Source: Selaginella moellendorffii
Lineage: Eukaryota > Plantae > Lycopodiophyta
Reading direction: 5' to 3'
Assembly: GCF_000143415.4 (NCBI RefSeq)
Contig: NW_003314464.1
Location: 1-60,688, forward strand
Length of the DNA: 60,688 nt
Positions 6,263 to 34,446 of the stretch are shown here, one piece after another (the first letter of the stretch is position 1; each line of letters starts with the position of its first letter). Made by a program: the position numbers and the translations under genes. The notes under the pieces were generated by a model. That model made no database searches, was not told where the DNA came from, and saw nothing but the letters and a program-made list of their open reading frames with translations.

Positions 6263-6446
6263 TTGGTATGTATTGATCATTCTTCTTCCTTTAAACTATT
6301 CCTGTGGCAGATTGGAGCACGGTGAAGCTATGGTATTTATAAAGGGTAGATCTAATGAGTTGAGCTTTAAAAACCCAGTTCCAGGTCTACATTTGAATTA
6401 ATGTTTTAGATTTAAACACTAACCGTGTACAAGACAAGTAACAAAC

Positions 6447-9400
6447 ATGCTTGCTTTTTGTTGCCTTCCTCAAGCTTTTCTCACAGTCAATGCAAACACT
6501 GATGCGTTGATGTGTTTGGTAGGCTTTGTCCGCAGACACCAAATCCAAGTGATGATTGATATGGGAGCTACACACAGTGTGATATCTGAAGACTTGGTTA
6601 AGTTGTTAGGATTGAATGTTGAACAAATATTGCCCATACACTTTCAGTTTGCGGAAGGTGGGCAAGTAGCCAGAAAATTTGTGAGTGATGTTCCAATAAA
6701 AATATCCAAGTGGAAAGAAAAAGTGGACTTGGTAGTGTTGAAGATACTAGATTTTCAGATTGTGATGGTATGGATTTCTTCAACAAATATATTAAAGGGA
6801 TTTATGGTGCTAGACAAATTCATATCACATTGAAGTTAGAAGGATGTCCCGATGTGTCCTTCAAGTTGCAAAAGCGCTCTTCAAAGGATTGGGATGTTAA
6901 GTTCCTGACTATAAGAGCTGCTCAAAAAGCAGCTAATAAGGGATGTCGGACCTTTTGGGTTCAAGTGATGGAAGTTGAGGGTGTTTGTGACTTAGTTCAA
7001 ATTGGTGATGGGGTTGATTATGTACCAAAGTAGATATTGGAGTTGTTGGCAAGGAATCAGGATATCTTTTCGAAGGATTTGCCTAGGGCTACCTCCTAGC
7101 CGTGAGGTTGATCATCGTCATTCTGGGTTCTATACCACCTACAAAGGCTCCATATTGTCTGAATATCAAGGAAATGGCTGAACTCAAGAAGCAACTCACG
7201 GAGCTTCTTGACAAAGGTCATATCCCACTAAGAAAGTCACCTTATGGAGTTCCAGTCCTTTTTGTTATGAAAAAGGATGGAACCATGAGGATGTGTATCA
7301 ATTATTGGGCACTCAACAAGATCACAGTCAAAAATAGTTATCCTTTACCTCACATAGATTACTTGTTTGACCAACTCTTAAAGACTAAGTATTTTATGCG
7401 GCTTGATTTGCGGTCTGGGTATCATCAGATATGGGTGGCAAATCAAGATGTGGAGAAGACAGCCTTTAAAACTTGGTATGGATCTTATGAGTTTCTTGTC
7501 ATGCTATCTGGGTTATGTAATGCTTTGGCAACATTCAACACTATGATGGATAGAATATTCAGAGATTATTTGGACACATTTATTGTCCTCTATATCAATG
7601 ATGTTCCAGTCTTTAGTGAAATGTTGGAGGATCATTTGAAACACTTGGAGCTGGTGTTTCAGAAATTGCATGAACACAAACTGTATGCTAAGGAAAGTAA
7701 ATGTGCTTTTGGACAATTGCATATGAACTTTCTTGGACATATAGTTAGTGGTGGTGTAATTGAGGTGGATCCAAAGAAGGTGGAAGCGGTGAAGTCCTGG
7801 GAAGTTCCGACCACAATATCAAATGTTCATTCCTTTCTCGGTTTGGTGAGATACTATCACAAGTTTGTCCACAATTTTGCGAACTGTGGTTAAGATCTCC
7901 TTCAACCGTACAAAAGCACGTTGACAAGCTAGTGTCCAATGAAACAGTATACTACTCCATTAACTCAGTCAATAGAAGAGCAATTCTTTTGTTCTTAGGA
8001 TCCCAGATTTTAATAAACCCTTCAAAGTGCATTGTGATGCATCTGGCTATGCTATTAGTGCCGTGTTATAGCAAGATTGTGATAAAGCAATTGGTGTTAT
8101 GCTAAGGCGACATGGTTGTCCCATTGCATTCTATTCCAAGAAATTGGATGAAACCCAACAAAGATGACCAATGCACGAGAAAAAGATGTTTGCTATATTG
8201 TCGGTGTTGGAATATTAGAGACACTATTTGGGTGGACATACCAAGGTTTATACAGATAGTAACACACTGAGCTACTTTGCTACGCTGCCAAAGCTTATGC
8301 TGAAGCAGGTTCATTGGCAAGAGAAGCTTGCTAGATATGATATTGAAATCATATATAAACCTGGTAAAGATAATATTGTTCCGGATGCATTGAGTTGTCA
8401 AGCTCAGTTCCAGGCAATATCGGCAATCAGTTCGGACTAGTTAGAGGATGTTTGAGCTAAGTATGGAAGTGATCCATTGGCAAAGTCAATTTTGCACCAT
8501 GTGGAGTTGTTGAAGCAAGACACTAGTAGTAAAATGGCGAAAGTTGCTAGTCAAACCAATGTGAAACTTCACTTCTCAGTTTGGGATAGGCTTATATTCT
8601 ATAAGCAAGAAAGATTGTATCCTCCCTCTAAGGATCTGCAGCAGTTGTTTCTGCAGGAACATCATGATGTTCTAGCAGCGGGACATGGTAGATAATACAA
8701 GACTCTTGCTTCATTGAAAGAGGGATTTTTCTGGTCTGGTATGGAAGGTGATGTAACAGACTATATCCATTCCTACCCTATATGCCAGTAATGTAAGTGT
8801 AGAACTGAGAAGCAAGCTGGAAAGTTGCAGTGCATTTCAGGATCGGCATGGCCACTTTAAAGTGTGACACTTGATTTAGTCATTTGCTTACTATAGTCTA
8901 AGGGTTATGATACTTTGATGGTGGTTGTGGATCAGTTGTCGAAGATTACACACTTCATTCCAACTATGGAAACAGTGAATGCAAAACAAGTAGCAAAGCT
9001 CTTTTTCCATGAGGTAGTGCGGGTTTGTGGTCTTCCCAAAGAGATGATCTTGGATAGAGATTCGAGATTTACGGGAAAGTTTTGGGGCATACTATTCCAG
9101 TTTTTTAGTACCAAGTTGAAATTTAGTACAGCTTATCATCCTCAAACTGATGGGTAGACCAAATGTGTGAATGCTCAAGTTGAGGATTATCTACGGTACT
9201 ATGTTGCAGCGGACCAACGTGACTGGGTTGAGCATTTGGATATAGCAAAAATCTGTTATAACAACACATTTCATAGTGCTATTAGCTGTTCTCCATAGGA
9301 GATGTTGCAAGGGAATGCTCATGGGGTGCCTCAACAGATTGTTGTTCCGACACCAATGTTTGAAGTGTTGGTTTTGGCCATTGAGACTTATGTGGAGAAA

Positions 9401-9630
9401 CTACGCCAAAGTTGGTCTAGAGCTACTTAGGTGATGGGTAGAGCTTAGGATAGGTATCCACCGGATAAGGATCAGCATTGTCGGGATGTATCCTATCAAG
9501 TGGGAGATCAGGTGTGGCTATCTTCCCGAAACTTGAACATTAAGGGATCTTTGTCTTAGAAGTTATTACTAAGATATGTTGAACCCTATCGGGTGTTGAA
9601 ACGATTTGGTGATGTATCATATCGGTTAAT
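6447..9630 (+). mobile_element. Degenerate Ty3/gypsy pol (protease-RT-RNaseH-integrase)
   Basis: Protease MIDMGATHS; RT SPYGVPVLFV...RMCINY...LDLRSGYHQI...YIND; RNaseH HCDASGYA and YKPGKDN..PDALS; integrase [24 protein letters not shown]. Many stops and frameshifts. Confidence 0.93.
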
Positions 9631-9939
9631 TGGGCATTTTGAGTGTACTTAGACTAGACAAGCATAAGGACAAAATTCTTATGTGCTATTAGTTAAGCAT
9701 AATTAGCCCGGTAAGGAGTGTCTTGCACTAGCTAGTGACAAGAACCCTCGCGTATTGAGACTAATCCCTCAATATCGCTGGATGATAGCTTACCGTGTCT
9801 GCCAAACACCCTCACTATCATGCCCTTTGTATTAGTCTTATTTCGGTCCCAAATGCTAATTATGGAAAGTATCTAGATTTGCTCATTTGGAATATCTATA
9901 GACTGTAGAGATTGTCTTGAACATGAAAGGGACTGACAC

Positions 9940-11294
9940 ATGGCAAGTGTCGTGACACATGAACTGAGTCCAAGATGGAGTTTGACATGGAGTCTGATAG
10001 AGAGTCCAAGATGGAGTTTGACATGGAGTCTGATAGAGAGTCCAAGATGGAGAGTCTAAGAAGGAGTGTAAGACCAGGTTTAAGATCGGGACTAAGACTA
10101 AGATTAGGTCGAGACTAAGTTTGAGTCCGAGTCCAAGTGTGAAAGCCCAAAGTGATCATCTCCCAAATCCTAGGGGGGTTGGTGGGTCCTTGTGGAATAG
10201 TAAGGTGGAAGACTTTAGTGGAACTAATTTGGCCAGAAAAGGCTAGTGTGACCAAGGAAGGCTACATCCACGTGGTGGGTGATGATGTAACCATTGAGGA
10301 GTCTAAGGTTAGAGTGAATACAAATGAACAATTGGAGTAACTTAGTGAAATGTTCAAGAGTTGGCTCTAGCTCCCACGATAGATCAGATGGTCAATGCTC
10401 TCAATCCAAGTGTGGGTTGCATTACCTACTTAGATAACCTTGAATGACTCATTAAAACCTCACTCTAACCACATAGTTGGGGCACTCTAGTGGTGGAAGA
10501 TGGGGGGAGTACCCACGAGGCTGGGTTGTGATGTTTCGAAATGTCATCCCAAAGTCCTAGATTATAGAAAAAAAGAGGAGTGGTCTTCTTACTTGGTGAC
10601 CAAGGGTATGGTTACATAGTGAAGGAGCCCTAGAGGTTAGTAGGGCTTAGTAGATGGGCCTTTAGGCATTAAACCAGTGGTGGTATTAGCAAGCACTGGC
10701 ATAGATGGAGCAGGACTTGGTGAGGATTGAAAAAGGGATATTGGGGGATGGTGTTCCTTAAGTGTTGAGGCATCCTAAAGATCCTAAGGTGTGGTTATGG
10801 AATAACCACTCATAGATGGATAGCCTAGTCTTGGAGAGATGAAACTGTATTGTAGGTGGTCTTGGACTACCAATGGGACAAGGGCAAATAGATATAGTCT
10901 TAGTATAATAGGTTGAGATGTTGGTGGTACCTTTACCTTCCTTAGCCACACTTGCCTTTTTTAGCCAAATTGGTTCCATTGGAGTCCTCCCCCTACTATG
11001 ATTTTGGAGCTCACCAAACCCCCTAGGGTTTGGGAGACGATTACTTTGGGCTTTCACCCTTGGACTTGGACTCGGACTTGGTCTCAGAGTCAGTCTCGGT
11101 CTTGGTCTTGGTCTTGGTCTCGTTCTCAGTCTCGGTCTCGGTCTTGGTCTCGGTCTCGGTCTCGGTCTTAGTCTCTGTCTTGGTCTCAGTCCCCATTTCA
11201 AACTCCTTCTCAGACTCTATCTCGGATTCCTTCTCAGACTCCTTAGATTCCATCTTGGACTCCTTAAATTCCTTCTTGAACTCCATCTCAAACT
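9940..11294. repeat. Two opposing LTR-derived remnants with GAGTCC/GAGACC hexamer arrays followed by GTGAAAGCCCAAAG
   Basis: Plus copy ~9940-10760 and minus copy ~10860-11294. Same layout as the LTRs at 18467 and 25548 and the repeats at 41980-43480. Confidence 0.75.
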
Positions 11295-14757: not shown

Positions 14758-17700
14758 ATTGTCATTATCCCACTTGTAAAATAAGGTTTCCAAACCTTTA
14801 TATAGTATATAAATATAACAAAATTCAACTACATTGAAGCACATGCCATTTTATTTTAAACAAGGAAATGTCTACTCAATCACTTCTCCTCCCCCTGCCA
14901 CTGCTTCACCTCTCTCTTCTCTTTGTCATCGTCGTCCAATTTCTTTCCATCCTTTTAATATTGGCTCAGTTGCTCCAAGTCTAGGTGGAGCCCAAGTCCC
15001 CATTCAATCTTTACTTTCCCCCTATTAATAAAACAACTTCGTAAACTTCCAATAACATGTTGTAACACTTCTAGTATAATGCAAATCCTCTCAAAGAATT
15101 GTCTTTTAATATTAATACAATGGCATGGAACCCCATGCCATAATAAGTTACATTTTTAAATAAATACATGCCATCTCAGACTGTTATTTTTTTCCTCCAA
15201 CGCCTATACAATAATCTTGGAATTTCATCACTCTCCACACTATCAGGATTTAAACCCAATAGTAATGCCATCTCTTCTCTAATACATCCACGCTCATGTT
15301 CAGTGGTCGAAGAACCCATCCGGTTGAGCAGATTATAGAGATGCGGATAGTGCTTGGCTAGACAATATACATGCCATAAATGATGACTGGTGTCTGTCAG
15401 ACCAAATGGCTTCTGATATACCGTTCCATCTGCCATTTGGTTGATTTCTGCAGCCACCTTCTGGACTGGCCGGTTCTCTATCACCATCGCTCCAAGCCGT
15501 TTTGCAAGGTCCCCTAGAACATACGGTTTCTTCTCCCTAGTTTCCATACTACAAGAGATGGGGTGCACTGCATATGTGTGCGTGTTCGTTGCAGTTTTAA
15601 TCGGCGAGTCATCGATGATGAGGATTTCACTTGACCTAGCAGTCCGGTTCATCACTACAGCCTCTGGCTTGACGAAGATGGGCTTGCTACCCCTCACATG
15701 GACCATAGTCAAGCAATCCTCCTGCGTTAGGAGAAAGTCAAATGGTAATATTACTCGCGTTTGATCGTGCATCATCTGTAGCAATGTTAATGCATTGTGG
15801 CGCATCATGGATGTCCAAACTCCCAATTGCAAATTGAACCCGGCCCTTTGTTTTAAGTGTCGCATGGTCATTATTAGATCCCGCAGTTTCTCCCGTGTGA
15901 TTAATGTGAATCTATCTCTTTTGACCAACTTGCGACCGCAGGCTTTGGAGGGTGCAGTGACATTCGAGGACGAGCCACGCTCATGGGAGAAAAGGACACC
16001 GTTCAGATAAAAAACGATACAGTACCTTTGCCGTGACTCTGAAATGAAATGCATTAGCATAAAAAATGGTACAAGTCAATTTTACCATCTACAATATTAG
16101 CGAATGGTGCTCCCGATGGTCGTTGAGAGGGTTTTGGTCGAGGAAACGTGAAGGGTGGAAATACTCTCCTCTGCAATGTGGGGTCAATCGCATTCGATGG
16201 CGTGTGGGCACATGCCATTTCAGCTGTAGACTCTGGTACAACTGGCTCAACAGTGGCATGGGGTGGTTCCGATGGCGTGTGATCACACGCCATTTCAGCT
16301 GGTGCCTCTGTTGGCAAAGTGGACATGACCGAACAGGCAGCAAGGGCGGTGTAGGGAGGTTCCAACGGCGCATAGTCAGACGATTGGGCACACGTTGAGT
16401 CCGTTAGAAATGAGGATACGACCGGCTTGGCGGCTGGGGCGGCCTCATGCGGGTCCAATGGCGCCTGGTCACCGTCAGTTGGATACGTGGACAAGATTGA
16501 CTCAGTGGTATGGGCAGCATCAAGTGGAGTGTGGTCAGCTTGCTTGGCGTTGATATGGATAGTAGCCTCCACCAGCTCTGATGACTCTTGCAGGCAAGTA
16601 GAGTCCACTGGCGGATCCATATGCATGTCCAAATATCTCCCTTCGATTGAGATGGTATCCTCCCTACTAGCTACTAAAAACAAACTCATTAGCACATTGA
16701 ATCGACTATACTGTATTTACCATCAACTACTATTGAGGAACTAGGACCGATATCACTTGGGCACACTGCTGATTCTGAAGAATTGGACATATGTTTCGAC
16801 CCTTGCTTGGCACTATCCTTCCTTGACACTAAAGGCTAGAGTTTGTATCTTAATTCAACTGAATAATCTCTACTTACCATTTGCTCTGCGACCTACATGG
16901 ACAATGTTAGAAATGGTAAAAGGTTAGGAATGGATGTACTATTATTTACCTGATGGTTTGTCTTGTATGACCTTCCTCCGCTGCTCTTTGGCCACCTCAG
17001 GCTGGCTATCGTCGTCATCATCGTCGTCGTTGTTATTGTGATCGTCACCATTGTGAGGACCATCTAAGTCCTCTTCGTCCTCCTCTTCTTTGTCCTCCTC
17101 TTCGTCCTTCTGCTCTTCCTGCTCATTATCTTTCTCTGGCTCCTCATCCCCCTCCTGCATTTCTTCCATAGGCTGCTTAGGCTGGATGGCTTGTTCTTCT
17201 GGGACCATCTTGGGAAAATCATCTGGCCAAGTCTCCATCTCAAAATACAAGACATCCATAGCCTGTTTTAGTGCGTGACCTAGGACCGTATCCTCACCCG
17301 ACTGTCTTAACATGGTTTTTACACGTTCTTGCACCCTTTGAAGATGACGAGATGAGAAAAATGTGGCCCTGACTTGAAAAGCATCCCTCATCTATTGTAC
17401 CTCTTCATTGAGATTGGGGAAGGGGAGTCTGCTATAGGAATCTGAGTCAGGAGGTGGTGACTGGCTGCTTTCACTCAGCCCTTGATCTGCAATGAATGGC
17501 ATGAGCACACACGCCATAACCGTGAGGCATTACGTATCATCTTTTCGTTGCCCTTCTTCCTTTTCGAATCAAAAGCCTCTGATCCCGACGATTGTCCAAC
17601 GTGCTTTCGCTTTTTATGACCACTGTCAGTTTGAGCTTGGCTGGTGCTTGCCTGTTTTGCCTTTGAAGAAGTGTCTCCTGCTAGGAATGGCATGAGACCA

Positions 17701-18466
17701 CACGCCATTGCAAATATAATTTGTACCTCCTTTTTTCCTATTGCTTGTCTGTTTGTCCTTTTTCGACGCGCCACCAGTGCGCTTTTCAGTCCTCGTGTCT
17801 GAATATTCACAACGATCTATAATCAAAATGGCGTGAGGCCTCACGTGACCTTACCTTGTGCAGGTTGTGAGCTCGGCCCAACATGGGTATCTTCAACAGT
17901 AGCTGTTAACGCCGTTTCAGCATCTGGGGGTGGCCACGCTCCTGCATACAGAGCTTGTGAGATAACATTTAAACTTAAAGTGCGTACTCACCAGGTTCGC
18001 AGAGAAGATACTGTTTTTCTTTGGCAACTGTAATTATATGCTCCATTGAAGTCACCTCTTCAATGGAGTTTGTCACCGCAACACACGGGACACCCTTGAG
18101 TAGTGCGGCTCGAAAGAATAGTCCGCCGCAGTTGTACTCGACAACGCATTTGCCCTTGGAGTCGGAAGCAGGTGACCCACCCGCTATTGCGTTGAAGACC
18201 CAGCTGAGCATTTCCCATGCTGCACCTGGAGCTTTCTCTGGATTCGAAAGCTCCATAGCCATCTTCAGTTCCTCAGGCACGGGTAAATTGACCTCCCTCA
18301 GATCAATTCGATCGGCCTTGTCGAACGAAGCTGGGAAGTCACTCCAGTCCCACTCTGCTGCAGGACCAATAACAAGGGCGAGTGTGAAGATGCGGACATT
18401 CGTTGGTATCTTCTTCTTAGCCATTATCCCATGGATCTCCCGCATCTCCTTGCCTTTCAATCGAGC

Positions 18467-19631
18467 TGTAAGGAACCGACTCCCCGAGATGTCGTAGGCT
18501 AAAGGATCCCCAAAAGCTTGACCGAAATGACAAAGAGTTCATCGGATGGGACCAAGTCGAAGATCGAGTCCAAGACCAACTCTAGGACCGAGTTCGAGAT
18601 AGAGTCCAGAATCGAGTCCGAGACCGACTCGGGGACCGAGTTTGAGTCCGAGTTCGACACCGAGTTCGAGACGGAGTCCGAGATCCGAAATCGGGTCCGA
18701 GACCGAGTCCAAGGTCGAGTCCGAGGTCGGGTCCGAGATCGGGTTCGAGATCGAGTCCGAGATCGAGTCCGAGACCAAATCCGAAGTCGGATCCGAAATC
18801 GGGTCCGAGATCGAGCCAGAGACTAAGTCCAAATACTAATACGGGTCAAGGGGTGAAAGCCCAAAGCGTGCATCTCCCAGGGGGGGGGGGGGGGGGCTGC
18901 AGGGGGTTCCAAAAGTATAGTAGGGATAGTGAGGTCCAGGAACCAGTCTTGAAGGAACTCTCCGGTGGTGCTTCCAAACTGACTTGAGGTTGAGACTGGG
19001 GCCGAGGGGCCTTGGGTGGGAGTGAGCATGGGCCTGAGTGGTGCCGGAGGGGCCACCCAGGGAAGTGCTCAAGAGCAGCTCCCACTCCCGAAAGGGAAAC
19101 CGACTGCGGTGCTCCCGGCTCAGGTGGAGTGGTGCCCCACTTGAGTACCTTGTGGCTCATTGGTCCTCGCCCTTCCTAGGGGCTTGGGCCTTCCCTTCGG
19201 GATGAAAGTGGGGGGGTAGAGGTACCCATACCGGGCCGTTAGGCCATGGTGTTTTGCCCCGACATCCCGAAGCAAGTGCTGCACCCAAGACTTGGGATTT
19301 AGAGGGTCCCATGATCAAGTCTTGTGGTACCAAGGGGTGTTAGGAATCTGGAGGCTTGGTGTGCTTGGCTGTTTGTGCCTGCGGGGAGTGTAGCCGAACC
19401 TTAAGTCCAGTCTAACCCGGGGAGGGGGATTGGGAGAGATTTGGGAATCCGTAGATGGATGGCTAACACTCCGTTGTTCATGTAGTAAGTAGTTGAAACC
19501 AAGTAGGACCAAGTAGGAGCTGGTACCATAGGCGGGAACCTTGGCGAGGGAACTTAGCACAAGCCAAGGCAGAGTTGGTCGGATAGACGAGGTAAGCTGG
19601 CAAATTGGAAAGGAAAAATTTGTGGCTTACA
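18467..19631 (+). repeat. 5' LTR
   Basis: TGTAAGG...GGCTTACA; near-identical to 25548-26703; contains a CCGAGT/CCGAGA hexamer array. Confidence 0.95.
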
Positions 19632-19634
19632 ATT

Positions 19635-19646
19635 TGGTATCAGAGC
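19635..19646 (+). promoter_or_regulatory. Primer-binding site complementary to tRNA-iMet
   Basis: TGGTATCAGAGC, 3 nt after the 5' LTR end. Confidence 0.93.
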
Positions 19647-22600
19647 TTCTTCCTCAGTTCTAGCGAAGGATAGAGGCGGATTGCTGGGAGATGGCGAGGG
19701 CAGGACGTAAGAGAACCCAGGCAGAGACGGAACCTCCTCCAGAGCTGGAGCCTCCGGTCGAACAGGAGGCTATGGATGAGGAATCCTTGCATGAGGAGGA
19801 CTCCAGTGAGGCAACTTCCAAATAGGAGTCTGGTGGTGAGGTTCGGTCGTCCAAGGCTCGATTGGATGCTCTAGAAGGACAATTGGCACAGACCAATGCC
19901 CTGCTAAAGACTCTCATACGCAAGCTAAAGCGTGACGAGAAGCGGAAGAAAAAGCGAAAGACTGCGGATGCTGGTAGCGCAGAAGGTGCGGACCCTTCGG
20001 CAGGGACTGAGGCAAAACCAGACAAGGTCGAAAAGACCAAAGTGGAATCAGTCCCTCAGGCAGTTCCCAAGTACAAACCAAAGCCCCCACCGGTCTTCAA
20101 GGGAGTGAACGACTATAAGGTGGTGGAGGATTGGTTTTACGATATGGAGGACTACTTCCGAGCGTTGTGATTACCGAGCTCAAAGAAGGTCCCATGTGCA
20201 AAACCATACTTGGCGGATAATGCCAAGTCTTGGTGGAGAACGACAGAGGCCAACGAAGGATCGGTGGCCACTTGGGAAATGATGAAGGCAAGGATCCGCG
20301 CAACTTACGTTCCTCCGAATGCTACTCTGCATCTAAGGGACGAGCTGAGTAGGCTGAAGCAGACTGGAACCATTCAGGAGTATGTGAATGGGTTTATGGC
20401 AAAGAGGATACTTGTCACGGACATGGGGGATATGGATGCGTTCCATGCCTTCATATCAGGTTTGCAAACCTTGGCTCGCGGCGAGGTAATGCGGTGGAAC
20501 CCGACCAACTACAAGGAAGCGTTGGATGCGGCCATCAAGGTGCATTTCAACGATAACCTGCGAAAGGGGAACACGACGGGGTCGGGATCCACGTTTAGCA
20601 AAGGGGCCAAACCAAGGGGAACGTTTAGCAGAGGGAAATTCAAGAAGAGTTTCTCTAAGAATGAGTCCTCGAGGTTCCGGAAAGGCAGATCCGATGGCCA
20701 GCGAGCGAGTACTTGGGGGAGCTAAGCGAAAAGAGACAAACCCATGGATAAGAAGGTCAAGTCGTATAGCAGCGTGGGAAACAATGTATGCTACAACTGC
20801 GGTGAAGCAGGACACTTCTCGAGGGAATGTCCCTACTCGAAGAAGGCCAGAGCCAATATGGCCATCAAGTCGGGTGAAGTCCAAACGGAGGTATGTGATC
20901 CAGTCCCTAACTCAAAGTTACTCATTACACAAGCAACTTTGGTAGAGAGTCGTTCGCGACATCTACTAGCCCTCCAAAGGAAGCTCAGAGGTAGCTTTGT
21001 TAAAATCCTTATTGACACGGGTGCTTCGGATAATTTTGTGGCTGCAAACATAGTCTGGCAAGCCGGACTAACGGTGCAGCGGCTAGGCGATCCAAGGACT
21101 ATAGAGTTTGTTCAAGGTAGCCAAAGCACCGATGAGGTACTTCGACAAGCGAGAGTCGAAGTGGGGACTTGGAAGGTGGACATGGATTTCACCATGTTGG
21201 ACATGGCGGGATTTGACGTGATCTTCGGAATGGACTGGTTCAATCGATTTGTGGTAGCCCTGCATGGACAAGGTAGAAATCTTGTGGTACTGGCGAATGC
21301 CCAAGGAAGAAGATCTAGGGTGGAGGCCCAAGATCCAAAGGTAGGGCAAAGCATGGCCAAAGATTCCTGCTTAAACCTGGTGTCCACGAGAGGACAACTA
21401 ACTAAAGGAACTAAGGCGGCCTTTTTGTGCTTACTCTCGGTGAAGAGTGACAAAAAGACAGGAATGGAAGAAGTACCTTTAGTGATCCAGCAGGTGTTGG
21501 ACCAATTCCAGGATACCATGCCGGAGGAGCTACCGGCGGGGCTACCCCCAGCACGACCGATAGAACATAAGATTGAGCTGGTCGAGGGTGCTGAGGCAGT
21601 GGTTCGTCCCCCTTATCGTTTGAACGAAAAAGAACTCAAGGAGCTCAAGTGCCAACTAGAGGAGTTGGTGGACAAAGGGTATGTTAGGTTGAGCAAGTCG
21701 CCGTATGGGGCGCCGGTGTTATTTGTGAAAAAGAAAGATGGATCTATGCGCATGTGCATAGACTACCGGTTGCTCAACAAGTATACAAAGAAGAACAAGT
21801 ACCCTTTGCCAAGGATTGAGGACCTGTTCGATAGGTTGGGAAAGGCAAAATACTTCTCGAGGATTGACCTAAGGTCAGGATACTACCAGATCAGGGTAAC
21901 CGAGGAAGATGTCGAGAAGACAACCTGTCGAACGAGGTATGGGAGCTTTGACTTTCTGGTGATGCCCTTCGGGCTATGTAATGCACCAGTAACGTTTTTG
22001 GTGCTAATGAACCACATCTTTGTACCCTATCTGGATCACTTCGTGGTCGTCTATATCGACGACATCCTGATCTATAGCGAGACGCTAGAGGAGCATGCCG
22101 AACACTTGGCGAAGGTGTTTGAGAAACTAAGGGAACACAAACTGTATGCTAAAGAGAGCAAATGTGACTTTGCTCAACAAGAGGTAAAGTTTCTTGGGCA
22201 TGTGGTGGGCCAGGACGGGCTCAAGGTGGACCCGGAGAAGGTCCAAGCGATCCAGGAATGGGAGCGACCATCCAATGTACACGAGTTGAGGGCATTCCTG
22301 GGGCTATGCAACTACTATCGAAAGTTTATCAGACACTATTCGAGAGTAGCCCTGCCTTTAACGGACCAAACGGGAAAAGGGAAGATGGTGTGGACAGCGG
22401 AATGCGAGGCGGCATTCTTCCACCTCAAAGGGAAGTTGAGGAAGGCTCCCGTATTGGCATTATCAGACTTTGGTAAGGACTTTGAGGTAGAAACGGATGC
22501 TTCGGACTTTGCGTTGGGCACAGTTTGAAGCAAGACAACCATCCGGTAGCGTTCTTCTCGAAGAAGTTGGACAAGGCTCAACGGAAGTGGCCTGCCCACG

Positions 22601-23563
22601 AGAAGGAATTGTTTGTGGTGGTCAAGGTGCTGAAGGAGTGGCGACACTACCTTGGGAGACACTTCAAGGTTTACACGGACAATGTGGCAACGAAACACTT
22701 CTTGTCACAGCCCGACCTAAGAGGGAAACAAGGTCGGTGGGCCAATGCCTTCGCTGAGTTTGATTGCGAGATTCTGTACAAGCCTGGGAAGAGCAACATC
22801 GTGGCGGATGCGCTAAGTCGAAAAGCGAGCTTGAGGTTGGCAATATCCAGCGCAACAGCAACCTTCTGGGACGATGTGCGGATAGCATATGAGAACGATG
22901 GTCTAGCACAAGAAGTGTTGCTGAGGAATCTAGAGGTGCGGGAAGCTCACCAGAGAGGTGAGCTGCCAGCAGAGGAGAAAATGGGCTATGCAGAACGCAA
23001 CGGACTCATCTATTACAAGCAAACGAGGGTGTATGTTCCAGAAGGGGAACTAAGGAAGGTGGCCTTAGAAGAGTGTCATGACGGACCTCTTGCGGGACAC
23101 GACGGAGTGCCCAAGACGATGGGCTTACTCAAAAGGAAGTACCATTGGCCAGATATGGCTAAGGACGTCCAAGACTATGTAAAGACATGTCCAACATGTC
23201 AGCAGGTAAAAGCCGTGACTAAGGCTAGTGGGGGCTTGTTGCAAAGCATCCCAATTCCAGATCGCCCGTGGAAATGTCTTACGATGGACTTCATCACGGG
23301 ACTCCCCCCAAGCGAGGGGTTTGATGCGATATTCGTGGTGGTGGACCGATTTTCTAAAATGGCAAATTTCATACCCACCACAACGGAAGTGGATGCGGAA
23401 GGTGTGGCGAAGCTGTTCTTCGAACAAGTGGTTTGAGTGCGGGGAAGGCTGGAAGAGATCATCTCAGATCGAGATAAAATCTTCACCAGTAGGTTTTGGA
23501 GGACTCTCCTGGAACAGTATCGCACCAAGCTAAAATTCAGCACAGCCTATCACCCACAGACAG

Positions 23564-23610
23564 GTATTGGGTATTAAGTCAAGTTTAATGGCACTAACAC
23601 TTCTTGACAG
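23564..23610 (+). other. 47-nt GT-AG intron in the integrase core
   Basis: HPQT-G|GTATTG...CACTAAC...TTGACAG|AC-GQT. Splicing restores [12 protein letters not shown]. Confidence 0.85.
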
Positions 23611-24028
23611 ACGGACAAACAAAAAGGGTGAATAGGCAGCTGGAGGATTATTTGCGATGCTATGTCTCGGGAGACCAGACCGATTGGGTAAGTCATTTGG
23701 GACTTGCGGACATGTGTTATAACAACTCACCACATTTGAGTATCGGGGTGAGTCCATGGGAAGTCATCAATGGGCGAGCTATTGAAGGTCCTGTGGAACT
23801 CGGCGTGGCCGAGTATCATGGAGAGTTGCCCGCAGTAGAGGCATTCACGGCGGAAAGACTCAGCATTTGGAATCTAGTGAGGGATTCCTTGGAACGGGCT
23901 CAACAAAGGCAAACCAAATACGCGAACCAGAAGCGTCGGGATGTAGAGTTCCAAGCTGGGGAGAAGGTGTGGCTGAACACCAAGAACCTCAGACTACCAA
24001 GTGGGATCAGCCGAAAGTTGACCCAAAG

Positions 24029-24080
24029 GTAAAGATGCATGTATTCCTGTAAATGAATTGATCTTGAGTTCCTTAAGCAG
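24029..24080 (+). other. 52-nt GT-AG intron in the integrase C-terminal region
   Basis: KLTQ-AG|GTAAAG...TTAAGCAG|G-FAGPY. Splicing restores KLTQRFAGPYKI. Confidence 0.85.
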
Positions 24081-24351
24081 GTTTGCGGGGCCTTACAAGA
24101 TTGAGGCACGAATCGGTAAAGTGGCTTACCGACTCCGACTTCCTCGAGAGATGGGGAAGATGCACCCAGTGTTCCACGTGAACTTACTCAAGCCGTACTT
24201 TGAGGATCCGCTTCGCAAGGACCAAGTGAGACCTTTACCTGAGGTTATCCAAGGGGAAGAGGAATACGAAGTTGAGGCCATCCTCAATGCGCGCAAGAGC
24301 AAGCGACAAGGACGCAAGGTGAGAGAGTTCCATGTGAAGTGGAAAGGATTT

Positions 24352-25027
24352 TGTAGCGCACCTTATCTCTCTCCCCTTAAGCCAACTGGAAAAGGGGCAA
24401 TTTGCTTGATGAGAGAGCCCTTAGTGGCTATTTTATCCCCATTTATCCCCCAAGGTTCCAAGGATCCACGGTGACAGTATATCCAAATCTCATCCCATGA
24501 TCACATGCGCTACACTCACCCCCCCTTCAGAGATGTCAATGTCCTCATTGACTATTGACTAGCAACCCCTACTGAGCCAAGGGGAACCAGCACCTCCATT
24601 TCCGCACTCAATCTACCAATCCTTCCATTGTGTAGACTAGCTATTCCATGTGAGGCAACTAGTCATCCACCCGTACCGCAGTCCCACGGTGGATACCTTC
24701 GTCCGTGGATACTCCACACAAGAGGAAGGACGTACGCATGGATGCCCAATACGTACGATTTCAAATTTAGGGGTAGGAATATACCTTGCTCAAGGGTATA
24801 TTATACTTTTTAAGTAGCCACTAATCAATGGGAATCGAACCCGTGCCATTTGCTCTGATACCAATTGTACCGCACCTTATCTCTCTCCCCTTAAGCCAAC
24901 TGGAAAAGGGGCAATTGCTTGATGAGAGAGCCCTTAGTGGCTATTTTATCCCCATTTATCCCCCAAGGTTCCAAGGATCCACGGTGACAGTATATCCAAA
25001 TCTCATCCCATGATCACATGCGCTACA
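24352..25027 (-). mobile_element. TRIM (terminal-repeat retrotransposon in miniature), 676 bp
   Basis: LTRs 24352-24514 and 24866-25027 differ by one substitution and one indel and have TGTAGCGCA/TGCGCTACA ends. TSD GATTT at 24347-24351 and 25028-25032. Minus-strand PBS at 24852-24863 and PPT at ~24515-24528. Inserted in the host chromodomain. Confidence 0.95.
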
Positions 25028-25547
25028 GATTTCCACACTGCGAAGCAACATGGGAACCGGAGGAGAACTTAGCGAACGCACGAGATCTAGTGGAGGAATT
25101 TCTGCAAGGCAGAACTCTATGTACTTATGCAAAATTCAATTAAAAATAATCAATTTGCAAAGTTGAGCAAGTGGCATATGTTGGGACCCGAAGGCGCGCC
25201 GAAGGTAAGCTAATTAGCATGGGTTGGATAGGTCGACCAGGCGTAAGGCACTACGCCCGACTCCCCACAGGGATGTCGAATCCGTAGACGTATTCTACGG
25301 AGGTTGGGTTCGAGTCCCAACCCCCTAGTAAAGCAAGGCTGGGTTCAAGTCCCAACCCCATACTAGGGCGTGGTGAGGTTAGGGGTATAGGGACATCTAT
25401 ATTCCGTTGTCATGGGCTTTTGGCCTGGGAGGCTAACTTAGGCACACTGCTAAGTGGGGGGATGCCCCCGGAGACATGGTCAACAAGTCGTGGGATAAAA
25501 CGAGACGTTCGATGTGGGCATCGAACTTCTTCTATGGGTGGTGGAGT

Positions 25548-26703
25548 TGTATAGAACCGACTCCCCGAGATGTCGTAGGCTAAAGGATCCCCAAAAGCTT
25601 GACCGAAATGACAAAGAGTTCATCGGATGGGACCAAGTCGAGGATCGAGTTCAAGACCGACTCTAGGACCAAGTTCGAGATAGAGTTCAGAATCGAGTCC
25701 GAGACCGACTCGGGGACCGAGTTCGAGTCCGAGTTCAAGACCGAGTTCGAGACGGAGTCCGAGATCCGAATTCGGGTCCGAGACCAAGTCCGAGGTTGAG
25801 TCCGAGGTCGGGTCCGAGATCGGCTCCAAGATCGAGTCCAAATCGAGTCCGAGACCGAATCTGAAGTCGGATCCGAAATCGGGTCCGAGATCGAGCCAGA
25901 GACTAAGTCCAAATACTAATACGGGTCAAGGGGTGAAAGCCCAAAGCGTGCGTCTCTCAGCGGGGGGGCTACAGGGGGTTCCAAAAGTATAGTAGGGATA
26001 GTGAGGTCCAGGAACCAGTCTTGAAGGAACTCTCCGGTGGTGCTTCCAAACTGACTTGAGGTTGAGACTGGGGCCGAGGGGCCTTGGGTGGGAGTGAGCA
26101 TGGGCTTGAGTGGTGCCGGAGGGGCCACCCAGGGAAGTGCTCAAGAGCAGCTCCCACTCCCGAAAGGGAAACCGACTGCGGTGCTCCCGGCTCAGGTGGA
26201 GTTGTGCCCCACTTGAGTACCTTGTGGCTCATTGGTCCTCGCCCTTCCTAGGGGCTTCGGCCTTCCCTTCGGGATGGAAGTGGGGGGGTAGAGGTACCCA
26301 TACCGGGCCGTTAGGCCACGGTGTTTTGCCCCGACATCCCGAAGCAAGTGCTGCACCCAAGACTTGGGATTTAGAGGGTCCCATGATCAAGTCTTGTGGT
26401 ACCAAGGGGTGTTAGGAATCTGGAGGCTTGGTGTGCTTGGCTGTTTGTGCCTGCGGGGAGTGTAGCCGAACCTTAAGTCCAGTCTAACCCGGGGAGGGAG
26501 ATTGGGAGAAATTTGGGAATCCGTAGATGGATGGCTAACACTCCGTTGCTCGTGCAGTAAATAGCTGAAACCAAGTAGGACCAAGTAGGAGCTGGTACCA
26601 TAGGCGGGAACCTTGGCGAGGGAACTTAGCACAAGCCAAGGCAGAGTTGGTCGGATAGACGAGGTAAGCTGGCAAATTGGAAAGGAAAAATTTGTGGCTT
26701 ACA
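25548..26703 (+). repeat. 3' LTR
   Basis: TGTATAG...GGCTTACA, followed by TSD CGAGC. Confidence 0.95.
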
Positions 26704-29700
26704 CGAGCCTTCACCTCGTTCAAGGCCTTCCAGAACTTGTGATAGGATTCGGAGTCGTAGATTATATAGTGGACTGAAGATTCCACCTCCGCAAGTCCCA
26801 CCATTAAGTCAATGATGGAGCTGACTTCGTCTGCATGAGTGATCTCCTCGTTTGTGAAGTCCATCACACAAAAGATGTTCTTGACCTGCTCATCTCCGCG
26901 GGAAACGATGCTCCTCCACCTTTAATCCTCATCCAAATTCACGTATACCCAGTAAGGTTCTGGATAGGCCTCTGCTGTGGGGTCGAGCTGTTTCTGAAGC
27001 CGGCGGTCAACATCCCTCTTAATGAAATTTGGATACTGATCCAACTTCTCAGCTTTACTTTTCGTGGCATCCCGCAGCAGATCGATGAACTTGGGGGCCC
27101 CCTTCACGTACTCGTCGATGTCTTCATTTGACAACTCCAGCTCTTCCATCATCTCTTGCGTGGTGTCGATGCTCACCCTCTCCACGGCCACTTGCTCGAA
27201 GATCCAATCCTTCAATAGCGCACGAGCTCTCAGAGTCGTGCACAAGTCCTCGTATGTCATAATATGGCCGGGAGTCATTTTGGTCTTGTTGAAGACTACC
27301 TTACCACGTAGAAGAGCATTAGCCACTGTTAAAAGGTCGTCGTCGTCTAGAGACCGCGAGAAACGCAAGGCGTTGAGCTTCAAATCATTGGGCTTCCGGC
27401 CGTCCTCCACACCCATTGAGTTTAGCAACTCCCCGTTATGGTACCTCCTCAGCACATCTACCCATTTGTCAAAAACAACTTTTGTCGCGAGTAGAATGTT
27501 ATGGATGCTAAGTGTGTCATTGACCCCCACTGTTTTCGAGAGAAGACTCGAGAATTCCTGCAATGGAAATGGCGTGAGGCCACATGCTATGCCACATGCA
27601 ACGAGGCTTACCTGCCAGGTGCTAGTTGCTAGTGCACGTCCTTGTCCTGGTTTTTGTGGCTTCTTCAGTTGAACTCAGAGCTTCCGTATTCGTGCCAATG
27701 TCTCGTGCAGACCCGATTTGTAGCACGTTTCTTGCTTGACATTCTGCGCATGGGAGATGTATATGATAGATCGGAGGGGTGAGTTGCCTTTTATCAGGCG
27801 GACAACTCTTGTCTTGAAGACTTTCTTCACCTCCTCGCCCACCATAATATCCACAACTATCTTTTGCATCGCCAAGCTAGAATGCTGCCCGGAGACGGCA
27901 TAGAACCGGATGTTCTGATCGTCCAACACCTTCCTATTGATCAAGTCTGGAAACCTCGTCTCGCCCTTCATTGTTCGGTAGTAGGGGATCACGTCTACGA
28001 TGTCGGGTGTTACTGGCCTTGCCAGCATCTTCTGCTTCAGTTTCTCCACCCACTCATCAGATACTAGCCTGTGGTTGTATTTGCTTTGGATGTCGATACG
28101 GCTCACGTCGATTGTATATACTTTGTTGGAATAGTAACAAGTACTATTATCTGCGACGATTTTTGCTGCCTCTTCTTGCTCTTTCTGCTCTTTGCAACTC
28201 TTCTTTTTGGTGGGTGTAGTGTTCGAACCCGAGGCAATGGCATCACCGAGTAGCTTCTTTTTTGGAGCAGGAGAGTCGGACGTCGGCTTGAGCTTGACCA
28301 CCCTTTTCTGCTTCGGGGTAGTTTCCAGATCGACCCCCTTCCCCTTCGCTTCACGAACTCGAGGCACTCTCAACAGCTCAATGTTGGAATATAGTTTTTG
28401 AACATCGCCGTAGGTGAGGTCCGTGGATTCCATGTGATCTTCATAGACCCGCAGTGTCTTTGAAATTGTGGGCCTCCTGGACAACCTCTCCCTAGCTCCC
28501 TCTAGGAGTTCCTCATAGCCGCTGCCCCCCTCCGGGAAGCCGCTAGGATGTGCAAGGTGGATCTTGAAGGCGGACGCTGTCTCTACCACAAGTGCCAGTC
28601 CATATTCTTGCATGGAACTGCATGGAGTGTCTGTCACTTGGATAAGGATCCCCATGCATTCTTTTCTCCCACCATCTGTGTTGTACAGCCTCAGATCCTC
28701 GTCTTCCATCCCGAAAGTCCAACTGGTGAGCTCCTCCCCCTTCTCTGCATCCACATTGATAGTGGCTGGAAGAAGAACGCAATTCCTCGCCTGTTCAGAA
28801 ATGCACAACAATTAGAGCTGACAGATGAAAAGCTAGCAGCTAGAAAAAATGTGAGGCCACACGCCATTCACCACTGCATCAGATGTCTTGAGGCTGCATC
28901 CTAAGATGGCGTGAGGCTACACGCCATCTGTAACCGGACTGCACTCGAGAGCCCAATCGGTGCATGCCAATGTTGCTACTGAATGGCATGTGGCCTCATG
29001 CCATTTTCTACTTGGCCTAAAAGACTTACCATTTGAAGCCGAATGGAGGCGTGACAACCGGACTCGTTGGCGAATGTGCACTGTGTGTGCAGCGGATCGT
29101 AGCAGCAAGGCTACTCTGCCACTTACAGTTGGAGAGTGGCGCTGAAATCTCCCGGGACGCCAAGTGGGCTGCGTGTGGGTGGCGGAGTGGGCGGCGGAGT
29201 TGGCGGTGAAGTTACAAACTAGGTGTGTCTTGAAGTGGACGCCGATGCACACGAGCGCGATGCGAGCGCGAGTGTGATGCAAGCGCGAGTGGATGCCGAT
29301 GCACACGAGAAACCTGTAGAGAAGGTAGATGAGCGCCAATGTGAGCGTGATCGCGAGTGGGAGCGCGATGCGAGCATGAGTACGAAGCAAAATGCAAACC
29401 CTAACCTCACACGCGCGAAATGTCACGACGGTTGGTAATCCCACAACGTCATCATTTCTCGGACTTGGGCGCCACCATTAATTTCTGTATCGCCGCGCGT
29501 ATGCATGCACGTGAAATCCAAAAGAAATCCGCAACGTCATCATTCCTCAGACTGCATGCACGCAAAATCCAAAAGAAAGATCATGATTGGGATATCATTT
29601 AATACCCTCGCTATATTTATACCATGCATGATTGGATATTCCAAAGCATCTTGTATTTCCAAAAATGCCAGATGTTCAGCTAAATAAAGAATGGTATACA

Positions 29701-30057: not shown

Positions 30058-30083
30058 CTAAACCCTAAACCCTAAACCCTAAA
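30058..30083 (+). promoter_or_regulatory. Plant telomere-type (AAACCCT)n / telo-box array between the divergent genes
   Basis: CTAAACCCTAAACCCTAAACCCTAAA. Confidence 0.6.
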
Positions 30084-31205: not shown

Positions 31206-31395
31206 TGGCATGAGGCCTCATGCCATCTTTGACCCCTGCTAGCCTATTGCCATATTCCTTTTGCCTTGCTGCAACTGTATATATTTTTGTACGGGTGACT
31301 AGTCACACACACAAAAATATATACAGTTGCAGCAAGGCAAAAGGAATATAGCAACAGGCTAGCAGGGGCCAAAGATAGCGTGAGGCCTCATGCCA
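31206..31395. repeat. ~190-bp near-perfect foldback upstream of the transposase
   Basis: Arms are symmetric about 31300/31301 (centre GTGACTAGTCAC); each arm ends in a 22-bp palindrome copy. Confidence 0.9.
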
Positions 31396-31548
31396 ATTTT
31401 GTGAATGCGAAATTTCACGTGGGTGTCAATAGCATGTTTGAATAATGGCATGTGGCCTCATGCTATTGAGGTTGTTTGGTATGTTATGATTTAGCCCATT
31501 CTCCAATCATTTTTTGTATGGTCTTAACTTCTTTTCTGCACTTTCAAA

Positions 31549-34446
31549 ATGGCCTCCGCAAGTGCGACGCATGTTCCCTCCGTGGATATTAAGAACCGTG
31601 CTACATGGATTCAGGTAAAGGTGTTTCTAAACAACCCCGAGGGGGAGGTGGTAGCTGAGGGCTTAGCCACAGTTGTCGATCCAAGAGATGCGGTTGCTAA
31701 TCAAGAATTGGGCTGGGATGATATTGGAGTTGTGATTTTAGAGGTTGTTGACACAGAAGAAAACAGTCTGACTATTGGAAGCATTGTGCGGTGGAAATTG
31801 AGGCACTTAGTGTTTGAGAATGTGAAGGATTCACAATCAAACACCACTACAATTGATGACAGAACATCTCTTCATGGGAAAAGAAAGTACACCTTTCTAA
31901 AGCGCAGCCAAAGGGATCTGAGCAACGAACCGAAAAGGCAGAAAATGGCGATGGAGGTTCGAATGGTCTCGACAGTTGCTTGTTGCAAGAGGAGGTGCTG
32001 TCAACATGCTGATTGGGATGCTATTGAAGAGGAGAGAGCAAGATACAAGACATTGTCCTAGAAGGCAACTCGCAATTTTGTGTATGAGGCATTACAGTCA
32101 TCTGTTGATGCTTCAGAACATCAGGTGGGGGGCATGGTCTTCTAGAAGGGTTTGGTCTGCATGAAGGCATGGAGAATCATTTATGGAGTCCCTCGAACCA
32201 CATTCTATAGAATCAAAACTGAGTTCGAGGAACAAAGGGTTCAACAGGCAGTCCATGGGAACGACGGTACTCACAAAACCAGGGGTCATGTTGTATATGG
32301 AGAGGCAATCTTCAAGAGGTTTATCGAGACATGTAGCGAGCAGCAACCACATAAAACCTGCCTCTTGGAAGATGGAACTCGAGACACCCAACGAGTTCTC
32401 CCTTCCATGTATACCAAGGGGGCCATATTGGAAGATGTGAATCGGGAACTCTAGAGTAATGGCTACAGGAAGTTGAGCCAATCTAGATTTAGTAGATTGT
32501 GGAGCAACAGGTTCAGGGATGTGAGTATAGGAAAGTACTCCAGCTTTTCAAATTGTGACGAGTGCACTGCTATCAAAATGGCTTTGTCGAAGAATTCTTG
32601 CATCGCTCAAGAGCGAGAGACGTTGGTTAGAAGGCGGCTTGACCACAACATCGAGTAGAGAAGCTGCAAGACTGCATATTATCATAACAGGATTCTCTCC
32701 ATGGAGAGACCTGACTCTTACCTCTGCATCATCCACGACAAAATGGACTAGAAAAAGACGTGCTTACCTCGACTCAATCCTGCCCCCAAGGCAATCTCTT
32801 CATCCATGCAGCTGCCTGTGTCTCTGTTTGGCATAATCGCTCATGGGCATGGTGCCCAAAACTATGGGAACTTCTTTGTACCTCTATGGGGTGGCGGGGG
32901 TGCAAACATGATGATTGCGTCCTAGCAAAACACTTAAGGTCTCTGCAAAGTGCGCAGACTGAGCTGAACGGCCAACCCTTGCATAAGGCCCTTGTCGATC
33001 GAACCCCATACGGGGTTCAGCTGGAGGAGGAGCAAAGGCTTGCAGTATTGCGTAGGGCCCCATGCCATCCCAGTGAATATGTTGGCCGTCAGATTGTAGG
33101 GTTATCACGTGAGGCCTCATGCCATTCCGACGAGGCTGGTCGCCCGGTGAATGCACAGCCTCATCCAAACGAAGCAGAATCTCAAGGAAGTTCTTGCAGC
33201 CAATGTGGCCTTCCACCCCATCTTCTGCTCCAAACAGACAATGCTGGCAGTGAGAACAAAAACATGTACGTCTTCGCGTACTTGGCGATGCTTGTTGCCA
33301 AAGGCATATTTGAAACGGTTACACTTGGCTTTCTCATGGTTGGGCACACTCATGAAGACGTCGATGCCATGTTCAGTCACCTGGCAGAGTCCCTCCGGCG
33401 ATCCAATGTCCTCACCCTCCCACAACTCTACGATGAATTCCAAAATTGCATCAAAGGCATTGTTGAAGCTACACTTGTGACAGAGGTTCCAGACTTTAAG
33501 GGGTTTGTAAGAGGCTACATTAGGGACGGATCTGAAATGCTGATTGGCCACTCCAAGCCTCTTCAATTTTATTTCAGCATGCGTGACGGTGCTCCAGTGA
33601 TGAGGTACAAGATGAGAGAATGGGACACAGTGTGGCTGCCAGTGGACGGCATTGAACTCTTCAAGAGAGATCCCATAACTGGGGAACCTATGATTCCTCA
33701 GGGTTCCCCACGGCCGATGCACCCGGATGGACTCAAAGACCAAGAAAGTATAGTGGCCGGGATTAGACAACATATTGCCTTCTGGAAGAGGGGGTTGGTG
33801 TATTGTGGAGAATCCTATTTTAAGAGGTGCAAGCCTTTGCTCGAATACTGGGAGAAGATTATATCTGCTATCCAAAATGGGCCGGTTGTATATGAAGAAT
33901 TGGAAGAGTCCTTTTGGCCAGAACCCAGAGCACCAGATAGTAGCAGAACAATGTCCTCTGGAAATGCAGTGACAGATAACGATGTTGAGGATCACTATTG
34001 TGGGCCGAGGAACAAGAAGCCGAATTCAGCATTCAATCCAATACAAGTCTGCAAAGGAATGGTCGTGCTTGTCAGACCCAGTAATAAAAAAAAAATGATA
34101 TGGGTGGGGCGTTGCATCACTGATGCAGAGGAGGATGCGGAAACTAACTCCTTCAATGTAACTGTGGAGTGGTTCAAGCCAAGTTCTGGATATACGAAGG
34201 ATTGCCTAGAAAAGAGATGGGTGCTGAATCCAAGGGATCCTAGCATGAGCATATCGGTGGATAATGTTGTGCATGGTTGGATGCGGAAGCAGAGTGCCAC
34301 CATCACCTTGCCAGACCATGCAAGAGATGCAGCAAGAGCATTCATAACCCGGGTTCAAGGTGAGATTCATTAATATTCCTTTACTAAGTTTCTAATGTAT
34401 TTTATTTCAAGGTGAACAATCCGAATCTGAATCAGAGGAGGCGTGA
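31549..34446 (+). pseudogene. DDE transposase, Sola/DUF7869-like, with a TNP1/En-Spm-like N-terminus and a BAH/Tudor-like C-terminus
   Basis: One frame from ATG 31549: VAEGL...DP...LG...W; CCKRRCC; VCMKAW...YG; HGN; FSNCDEC...H; LCIIHDKMD. Frameshift at ~32910, then LLLQTDNAGSENKN and FLMVGHTHEDVDAMFS. C-terminus VLVRP...IWVGR...VEWFKP. Last intron 34360-34411, stop at 34446. Five in-frame TAG stops. Confidence 0.85.

Follow-up and report, generated by a model that had tools for sequence, protein, structure and literature searches.

Two exactly spliced micro-introns inside the integrase of a Selaginella moellendorffii chromovirus, most likely SM1-Galahad

Retrotransposition has classically been proved by the loss of introns, on which the yeast, LINE-1, IAP and plant reporters are built. 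As far as the available text of a 2025 review goes, plant LTR elements are generally devoid of introns, Ogre and EVADE being the notable exceptions (PMC12786077). According to the accessible parts of the literature, the DNA of Ogre (Ty3/gypsy, Tat lineage) retains an intron, and the translation of its enzymes depends on splicing, as in the element described here, but the splicing falls between protease and reverse transcriptase (RT), whereas our element bears two introns of ~50 nt inside integrase and RT is not gated (PMC6317226, PMC4408406, PMC12786077). Our element is not a member of Ogre, as its protease and RT share one frame and a chromodomain is present. In BARE1 of barley (Ty1/copia), splicing yields a Gag-only RNA and the unspliced RNA codes for everything, in contrast to the situation here, where splicing is needed for an enzyme; the BARE1 RNA to be translated has a different start, lacks R and is unpackaged (PMC3735527, in the text available). 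EVADE and other Arabidopsis Ty1/copia elements are likewise plant LTR elements whose protein stoichiometry is set by splicing, albeit through long introns around protease that give a short Gag, and the same source, as far as accessible, reports no conserved splicing in Arabidopsis gypsy elements (PMC5580714). Foamy viruses likewise produce enzymes from spliced RNA and use unspliced RNA as the genome, but their splice removes gag to give a separate Pol and no intron lies within a catalytic domain (PMC7828637, in part). Finally, Penelope-like elements can keep introns after retrotransposition, and one spikemoss family has an inferred intron; on the other hand, they are non-LTR elements with another mechanism, and their introns are mostly in the 5' UTR (PMC8557442, in part). 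Ogre, BARE1, foamy viruses and Penelope elements are partial precedents. In the literature outside Repbase and the subscription journals, we found no report of an intron inside the integrase of an LTR element or of splicing in SM1-Galahad.

SM1-Galahad is a named family of S. moellendorffii, described as 7.5 kb long with LTRs of >1 kb, a G tract of 11-25 nt and a Met primer-binding site (PBS) (Novikov et al. 2012, PMC3350952, here and below in the available text). Its 3,885-bp Gag-Pol open reading frame (ORF) ends in the integrase core; downstream are an ORF of 316 bp and one of 309 bp with the chromodomain; the integrase was read as split into separate ORFs. Hundreds of copies, ~95% alike, were reported with none intact, and the sister family SM2-Galahad has a single 4,731-bp ORF with a chromodomain. 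The words 'intron' and 'splic' are absent from the text of the paper that was available, and 'intron' is also absent from the text of its supplement.

We analyzed a window of 60,688 nt, the whole stretch of contig NW_003314464.1 under study, in which one element of this kind lies on the plus strand. As the preliminary description had stated, the element has paired LTRs and a target site duplication (TSD): the 5' LTR (18467-19631; 1,165 nt) and the 3' LTR (25548-26703; 1,156 nt), both TG..CA, are flanked by CGAGC on the left (18462-18466) and on the right (26704-26708). The two LTRs share 1,120 matches against 36 mismatches (96.9% identical; K2P ~0.03), and the G tract, which is found at 18880 in the 5' LTR, counts 17 G there and 7 in the 3' LTR. 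No match to TATA or AATAAA was found in the 5' LTR. The PBS TGGTATCAGAGC occupies 19635-19646; we take it to be of the tRNA-Met type, in line with PMC3350952. A purine-rich tract (25536-25546) precedes the 3' LTR. Coding exon 1 (19691-23563) comprises Gag, a CCHC knuckle, protease, RT, RNase H and the integrase zinc finger (Pfam), and holds the first two catalytic aspartates (23287 and 23467). Exon 2 (23611-24028; 418 nt) comprises the third catalytic position, the remainder of the integrase core and a linker, and matches residues 1264-1389 of Ty3 Gag-Pol (E 3.9e-6). The first part of exon 3 (24081-24351) holds the SH3-like integrase C-terminal domain and the first half of the chromodomain, with Pfam matches to PF24626 (E 2.8e-16) and PF00385 (E 6.9e-5; 23.1 bits on this half of the interrupted domain, below the cut-off of 25.1); the second part (25033-25143) holds the remainder of the chromodomain and the stop. 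The chromodomain is interrupted in this copy by a nested TRIM on the minus strand (24352-25027), which is 676 nt long and non-coding, with LTRs of ~163 nt, a Met-type PBS and the TSD GATTT; no Rfam family matched the TRIM at gathering level. The paired TG..CA LTRs, TSD, PBS and polypurine tract (PPT), together with the order Gag-PR-RT-RH-INT and the C-terminal chromodomain found with Pfam, are those of a Ty3/gypsy chromovirus.

The chromovirus had been called structurally complete, which holds for its outline but not for its coding capacity. This copy is dead: there are four premature stops (19823, 20168, 20723 and 23434), a frameshift near 22523 that the contigs of the sequencing runs X4 and X18 (see below) do not share, a residue other than glutamate at the third catalytic position, and the nested TRIM. 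At 19823, 22523, 23434 and 23621-23622, where tabulated, most other copies differ from this one.

The surroundings contain several further features. A minus-strand reading frame is split by the insertion of the element and resumes beyond both TSDs; it belongs to a long gene (15176-18461 and 26709-29477) with no Pfam family and a weak match to NIF at 15179-16075. Beyond a hairpin with 95-nt arms (31206-31395), there is a decayed plus-strand gene with DUF7869 (31528-34373; E 3e-39), and a GGCATGTGGCCTCATGCCAT-like palindrome recurs across the region of the two genes, which possibly constitute one large DNA transposon with divergent genes. LTR-like repeats at 9958-11244 and 42156-43445 have a 12-nt tandem unit and a GTGAAAGCCCAAAG block in common with the LTRs of the element and are probably solo LTRs of related families. 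A short internal run of plant telomere-type repeats, (TAAACCC)x3, was seen at 30061-30083. Two host genes with introns of ~50 nt were found at 4259-6400 and 38991-40356, one coding for a leucine-rich-repeat and coiled-coil protein and the other for an armadillo-like one; they may resemble the flagellar proteins DRC3 and RSPH14.

The integrase is interrupted by two inserts. The first (23564-23610, plus strand) is 47 nt long, lies in phase 1, runs GTATTG..ACAG and has a stop in every frame, which for the coding frame lies at 23575. A branch-like CACTAAC motif is present, its final A being 14 nt before the intron end. The second (24029-24080, plus strand) is 52 nt long, lies in phase 2 and runs GTAAAG..GCAG, with TTGAT as its sole, weak branch candidate. 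The preliminary description had claimed inserts of 47 and 52 nt with GT donors and YAG acceptors, a CACTAAC branch point in the first and a host-like size; we confirmed the lengths, the splice-site motifs, the presence of CACTAAC and the size match. The 11 predicted host introns, hand-picked from 29 proposed ab initio, range from 44 to 97 nt with a median of 51, and the median for the species is 59 nt (PMC3729371, Table 3, the part of the source available). The GC content is 36% in intron 1 and 35% in intron 2 against 49-52% in the coding parts; an equally low value occurs in 0.5% of 4,422 other 47-nt windows in gag-pol for the former and in 0 of 4,407 other 52-nt windows for the latter. The chance of a GT start plus a YAG end in a random AT-rich insert is p ~0.0016, and 2.6e-6 for both inserts, values that leave out sliding inside the junction repeats.

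The joined exons read HPQT/(D)GQT at site 1 and KLTQ(R)/FAGPY at site 2, the same as in relatives, which bears out the claim that exact removal restores the motifs at both sites. The two lengths are not divisible by three. The catalytic triad of integrase is the D,D(35)E motif. Only 31 residues separate the second catalytic aspartate from the end of exon 1; position 36 falls in exon 2, the third catalytic position being four codons into that exon. Thus, unspliced RNA cannot encode a whole integrase, as the preliminary description had argued from the insert lengths; the split triad now adds to that argument.

As to the origin of the introns, the junction repeats (GACAG, 5 nt, in intron 1; AGGT, 4 nt, in intron 2) compare with 1-4 nt in the 11 host introns and point only faintly, if at all, to an insertion that duplicated its target. 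A transposon origin was otherwise unsupported. We detected no introner-type look-alikes, that is, no match of >16 nt to either intron within the window or in 33 metagenome loci, and the two introns did not match each other. We also considered RNA structure as a brake on splicing and found no support for it, the folding z scores being -0.27 and +0.73 for the introns and -0.09 and +0.63 with flanks.

The introns are present across the element family in the DNA contigs we examined. The comparison covered two runs: X1, which is DNA by a guessed label and comes from sample S1, for which there are three DNA runs, and X4, which is from another sample, its kind of nucleic acid not being on record; X2, X3 and X5-X14 were left out. 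None of the 18,455 X1 contigs mapped on 23100-24350 had an intron-less junction for either intron. The summed depth in the bins of the two introns was 81,831 and 87,118, values inside the 4,451-115,047 spanned by the 30 bins as a whole, and the joints listed for X1 were 11 in number (ten skips and one strand switch, one contig each, depth 7.8-21), none of them at the introns. In X4, contigs 23488-23706 (depth 41) and 23738-24350 (depth 44) spanned intron 1 and intron 2 unbroken, respectively, and no intron-less joint was seen in 285 contigs. Contig depth is not copy number and contigs drop rare variants, so that a few intron-less copies could be missed in these counts. The inserts might have proved unique to this copy, an outcome the preliminary description had set against itself; they are instead kept across the family DNA in X1 and X4.

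Both inserts are real introns that are exactly spliced. We compared six of the nine RNA or probable-RNA runs listed, of which X15, X17, X18 and X19 are RNA by a guessed label and X23 and X24 are recorded as RNA; X15, X17, X19 and X23 belong to studies P2, P3, P5 and P6, respectively. Intron 1 was exactly skipped (GT..AG) in three of the six (X15, X19 and, by one raw read, X23), and intron 2 in three of the six as well (X15, X17 and X19). A single 2,500-nt contig of X15 lacked both introns exactly, both were absent from X19, and X17 lacked intron 2 and kept a form of intron 1 that has four substitutions and is 1 nt shorter. Never being spliced in transcripts, the other outcome that had been set against the introns, is at odds with these junctions. 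The X17 contig has letters absent from X18, X19 and X4, and the spliced forms therefore come from more than one locus. The X15 contig has at least one letter, at 23847, not found in X1; the RNA and DNA runs therefore represent different individuals. Retention was seen too: an X18 contig kept intron 1 and ran 7 nt into intron 2, a pattern that could reflect carried-over DNA instead of unspliced RNA, and one read of X23 seems, by bin depth, to enter intron 2. X23 and X24 gave 5 and 2 reads only, from ~12% of each run, and the two of X24 were poor. The contigs and reads that keep an intron are consistent with either partial splicing or DNA carry-over. The four runs labelled as RNA by guess gave 1, 2, 17 and 8 contigs against 18,455 in X1, low numbers that fit RNA. 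No other GT..AG joint was seen in 18900-23100, where one run with both introns spliced covered only 17 of 30 bins. Altogether, the inserts have the GT donor, the YAG acceptor and the host-like size and composition of U2-type introns, and are exactly removed in RNA and present in DNA. As a separate observation, the X17 contig on 23533-24330 (depth 59) is chimeric, with unrelated sequence joined to the 3' half of integrase, and is perhaps a host transcript that absorbed a fragment of the element.

The element can be compared with SM1-Galahad. Without the TRIM it measures 7,556 nt, with LTRs of 1,165 and 1,156 nt, and its ORFs of 3,884 nt (counted up to the stop inside intron 1 and shortened by a private loss of 1 nt), 318 nt and 309 nt stand against 3,885, 316 and 309 in SM1-Galahad. 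The two are alike in size, LTR length, G tract, Met PBS and ORF layout, and the breaks between the separate ORFs of the SM1-Galahad paper correspond to spliced introns in our element. We regard the element as most likely SM1-Galahad, an assignment made on geometry rather than on a sequence alignment to the exemplar. What is known is the named family; what is new is the pair of spliced, family-wide micro-introns in its integrase.

The phylogenetic position of the element was assessed with a quick tree of 101 RTs, which included no clade-labelled Galadriel or Galahad reference. The element grouped with the second gypsy copy of the window, Riccia and unnamed rows with an SH-aLRT of 94, and this group was sister to 43 mostly angiosperm rows with a support of 90; both forks are below 95. 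The second gypsy copy (6423-9640) is an older fragment with amino acid identities to the element of 56% in RT and 41% in RH-INT. The preliminary description had cited it as a related copy that reads on without an intron; it indeed has no insert at either site, but at 41% RH-INT identity it belongs to a different family and serves as an outgroup rather than an intron-less sister. Among 270 proteins of relatives, 228 fit a loose continuous pattern at site 1, 41 lack the motif and one departs, and at site 2, 118 fit a continuous pattern and 152 do not match. The loose pattern at site 1 also counts P0101, a metagenome chromovirus Pol that departs two residues further on: after HPQTDG, it has 35 unrelated residues and a stop. 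This departure could mark an intron placed one codon later, or some other insertion. Fourteen of 33 metagenome loci, all distant, showed the HPQx motif, and none of the 14 has an insert there. No relative of exon 2 near full length was found among 30 candidates, and the search of viral contigs gave seven stretches with none confirmed. Likewise, we found no other species with these introns, the best identities being ~45-48% (RH-INT) and 49% (exon 2), too distant to say much. The introns appear derived, because SM2-Galahad has a single ORF, the second gypsy copy has no inserts and the 14 metagenome loci have none at site 1. Thus, the introns were probably gained on the own branch of the element family.

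The claim that the introns survived reverse transcription is supported by two lines of evidence, the TSD of the element's own and the LTR haplotype. Among the LTR sites listed (40 of 333 rows), there are 14 at which more than half of the X4 depth differs from the 5' LTR, and at 11 of them the two LTRs of this copy carry the same letter. Therefore, this copy would represent a sub-lineage that had already separated from the majority when its LTR was duplicated, and the introns are present in the sub-lineage and the majority alike. Part of this signal could be mimicked by gene conversion between the LTRs. Because both introns are kept in DNA, the template of new copies must have been the unspliced RNA, unless copies were made as DNA.

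We propose, with fairly good confidence, that the element is a decayed Ty3/gypsy chromovirus, likely SM1-Galahad, the unspliced RNA of which is packaged and copied and the doubly spliced RNA of which gives the only complete integrase. As read from the sequence, unspliced RNA would yield a single Gag-PR-RT-RH polyprotein with a truncated integrase at its end, which lacks the third catalytic residue as well as the C-terminal domain and chromodomain, and spliced RNA would yield the full Gag-Pol. Splicing efficiency would then set the dose of integrase. The spliced RNA would have to be kept out of particles or replication, most plausibly by separate pools of translated and packaged RNA as in BARE1 (start, end, cap, poly(A)), or by Gag binding its own unspliced message first. 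An RNA from which only intron 2 has been removed would have its stop 452 nt before the junction and would probably be decayed. We lean, by a modest degree, to the stricter proposal of an autonomous family with an obligate two-intron integrase switch, which excludes spliced RNA so fully that hundreds of copies arose without intron loss.

It is unlikely, in our estimate, that there is a bias instead of exclusion, such that spliced RNA is packaged and copied as well and intron-less copies are rare, short-lived or missed. The spliced RNA retains the PBS and the PPT, with no missing signal found, and the DNA survey used Logan contigs, which drop rare variants, from one of three S1 DNA runs. Nevertheless, ten skips at a depth of 7.8-21 were visible in X1, so that low-copy junctions are detectable, and a copy without introns would encode every protein and be expected to spread, but the two samples show none.

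We give a rather low probability to the family being a part-parasite that replicates from unspliced RNA and takes its integrase from a relative without introns, for example SM2-Galahad, splicing being incidental. An intact, high-copy sister family resides in the same genome and no intact SM1-Galahad copy was found in 2012 (PMC3350952, in part), and BARE2 is a precedent for borrowing (PMC3735527, in part). The lack of an intact copy is, however, the expected output of an ORF-based search that is blind to introns. Moreover, two separate inserts each restore the frame exactly on splicing, and exon 2 is stop-free in an old copy with the domains of exon 3 kept, as expected only under selection on the spliced product.

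Multiplication at the DNA level, in which the introns arose in one copy and spread by segmental duplication or with a DNA transposon and were never reverse-transcribed, gains something from the position of this copy in a reading frame of a possible other mobile element, but we consider it very improbable: the copy has its own TSD and splits that reading frame, the haplotype common to its two LTRs departs from the family majority at 11 of 14 among the sites listed, the X1 contigs spread widely in identity (4,247 at 99+%, 6,638 at 95-99%, 6,368 at 90-95% and 1,202 at <90%), and hundreds of copies were reported (PMC3350952, in part). That the skipped forms are intron-less genomic copies of other accessions is hardly credible, since, even with RNA and DNA runs from different samples and most RNA labels guessed, both cuts are GT..AG and recur in four studies (P2, P3, P5 and P6), one contig lacks intron 2 yet has a mutated intron 1, and neither skipped form is in X1 or X4.

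The reading preferred here, of unspliced RNA copied and doubly spliced RNA translated into integrase, has several consequences. With two sense-strand introns retained in an essential enzyme, such a family has to hold the RNA it translates apart from the RNA it copies, and two tags of ~50 nt make such RNA sorting measurable in particle RNA, polysomes and cDNA without engineering. The integrase introns also explain why a family of hundreds of copies was reported without an intact member, and ORF-based annotation can misfile intron-bearing families as dead, a risk that is greatest where the introns of a species are tiny. If the obligate splicing switch is true, this family would be the first case of an LTR element in which spliceosomal introns interrupt a catalytic domain.
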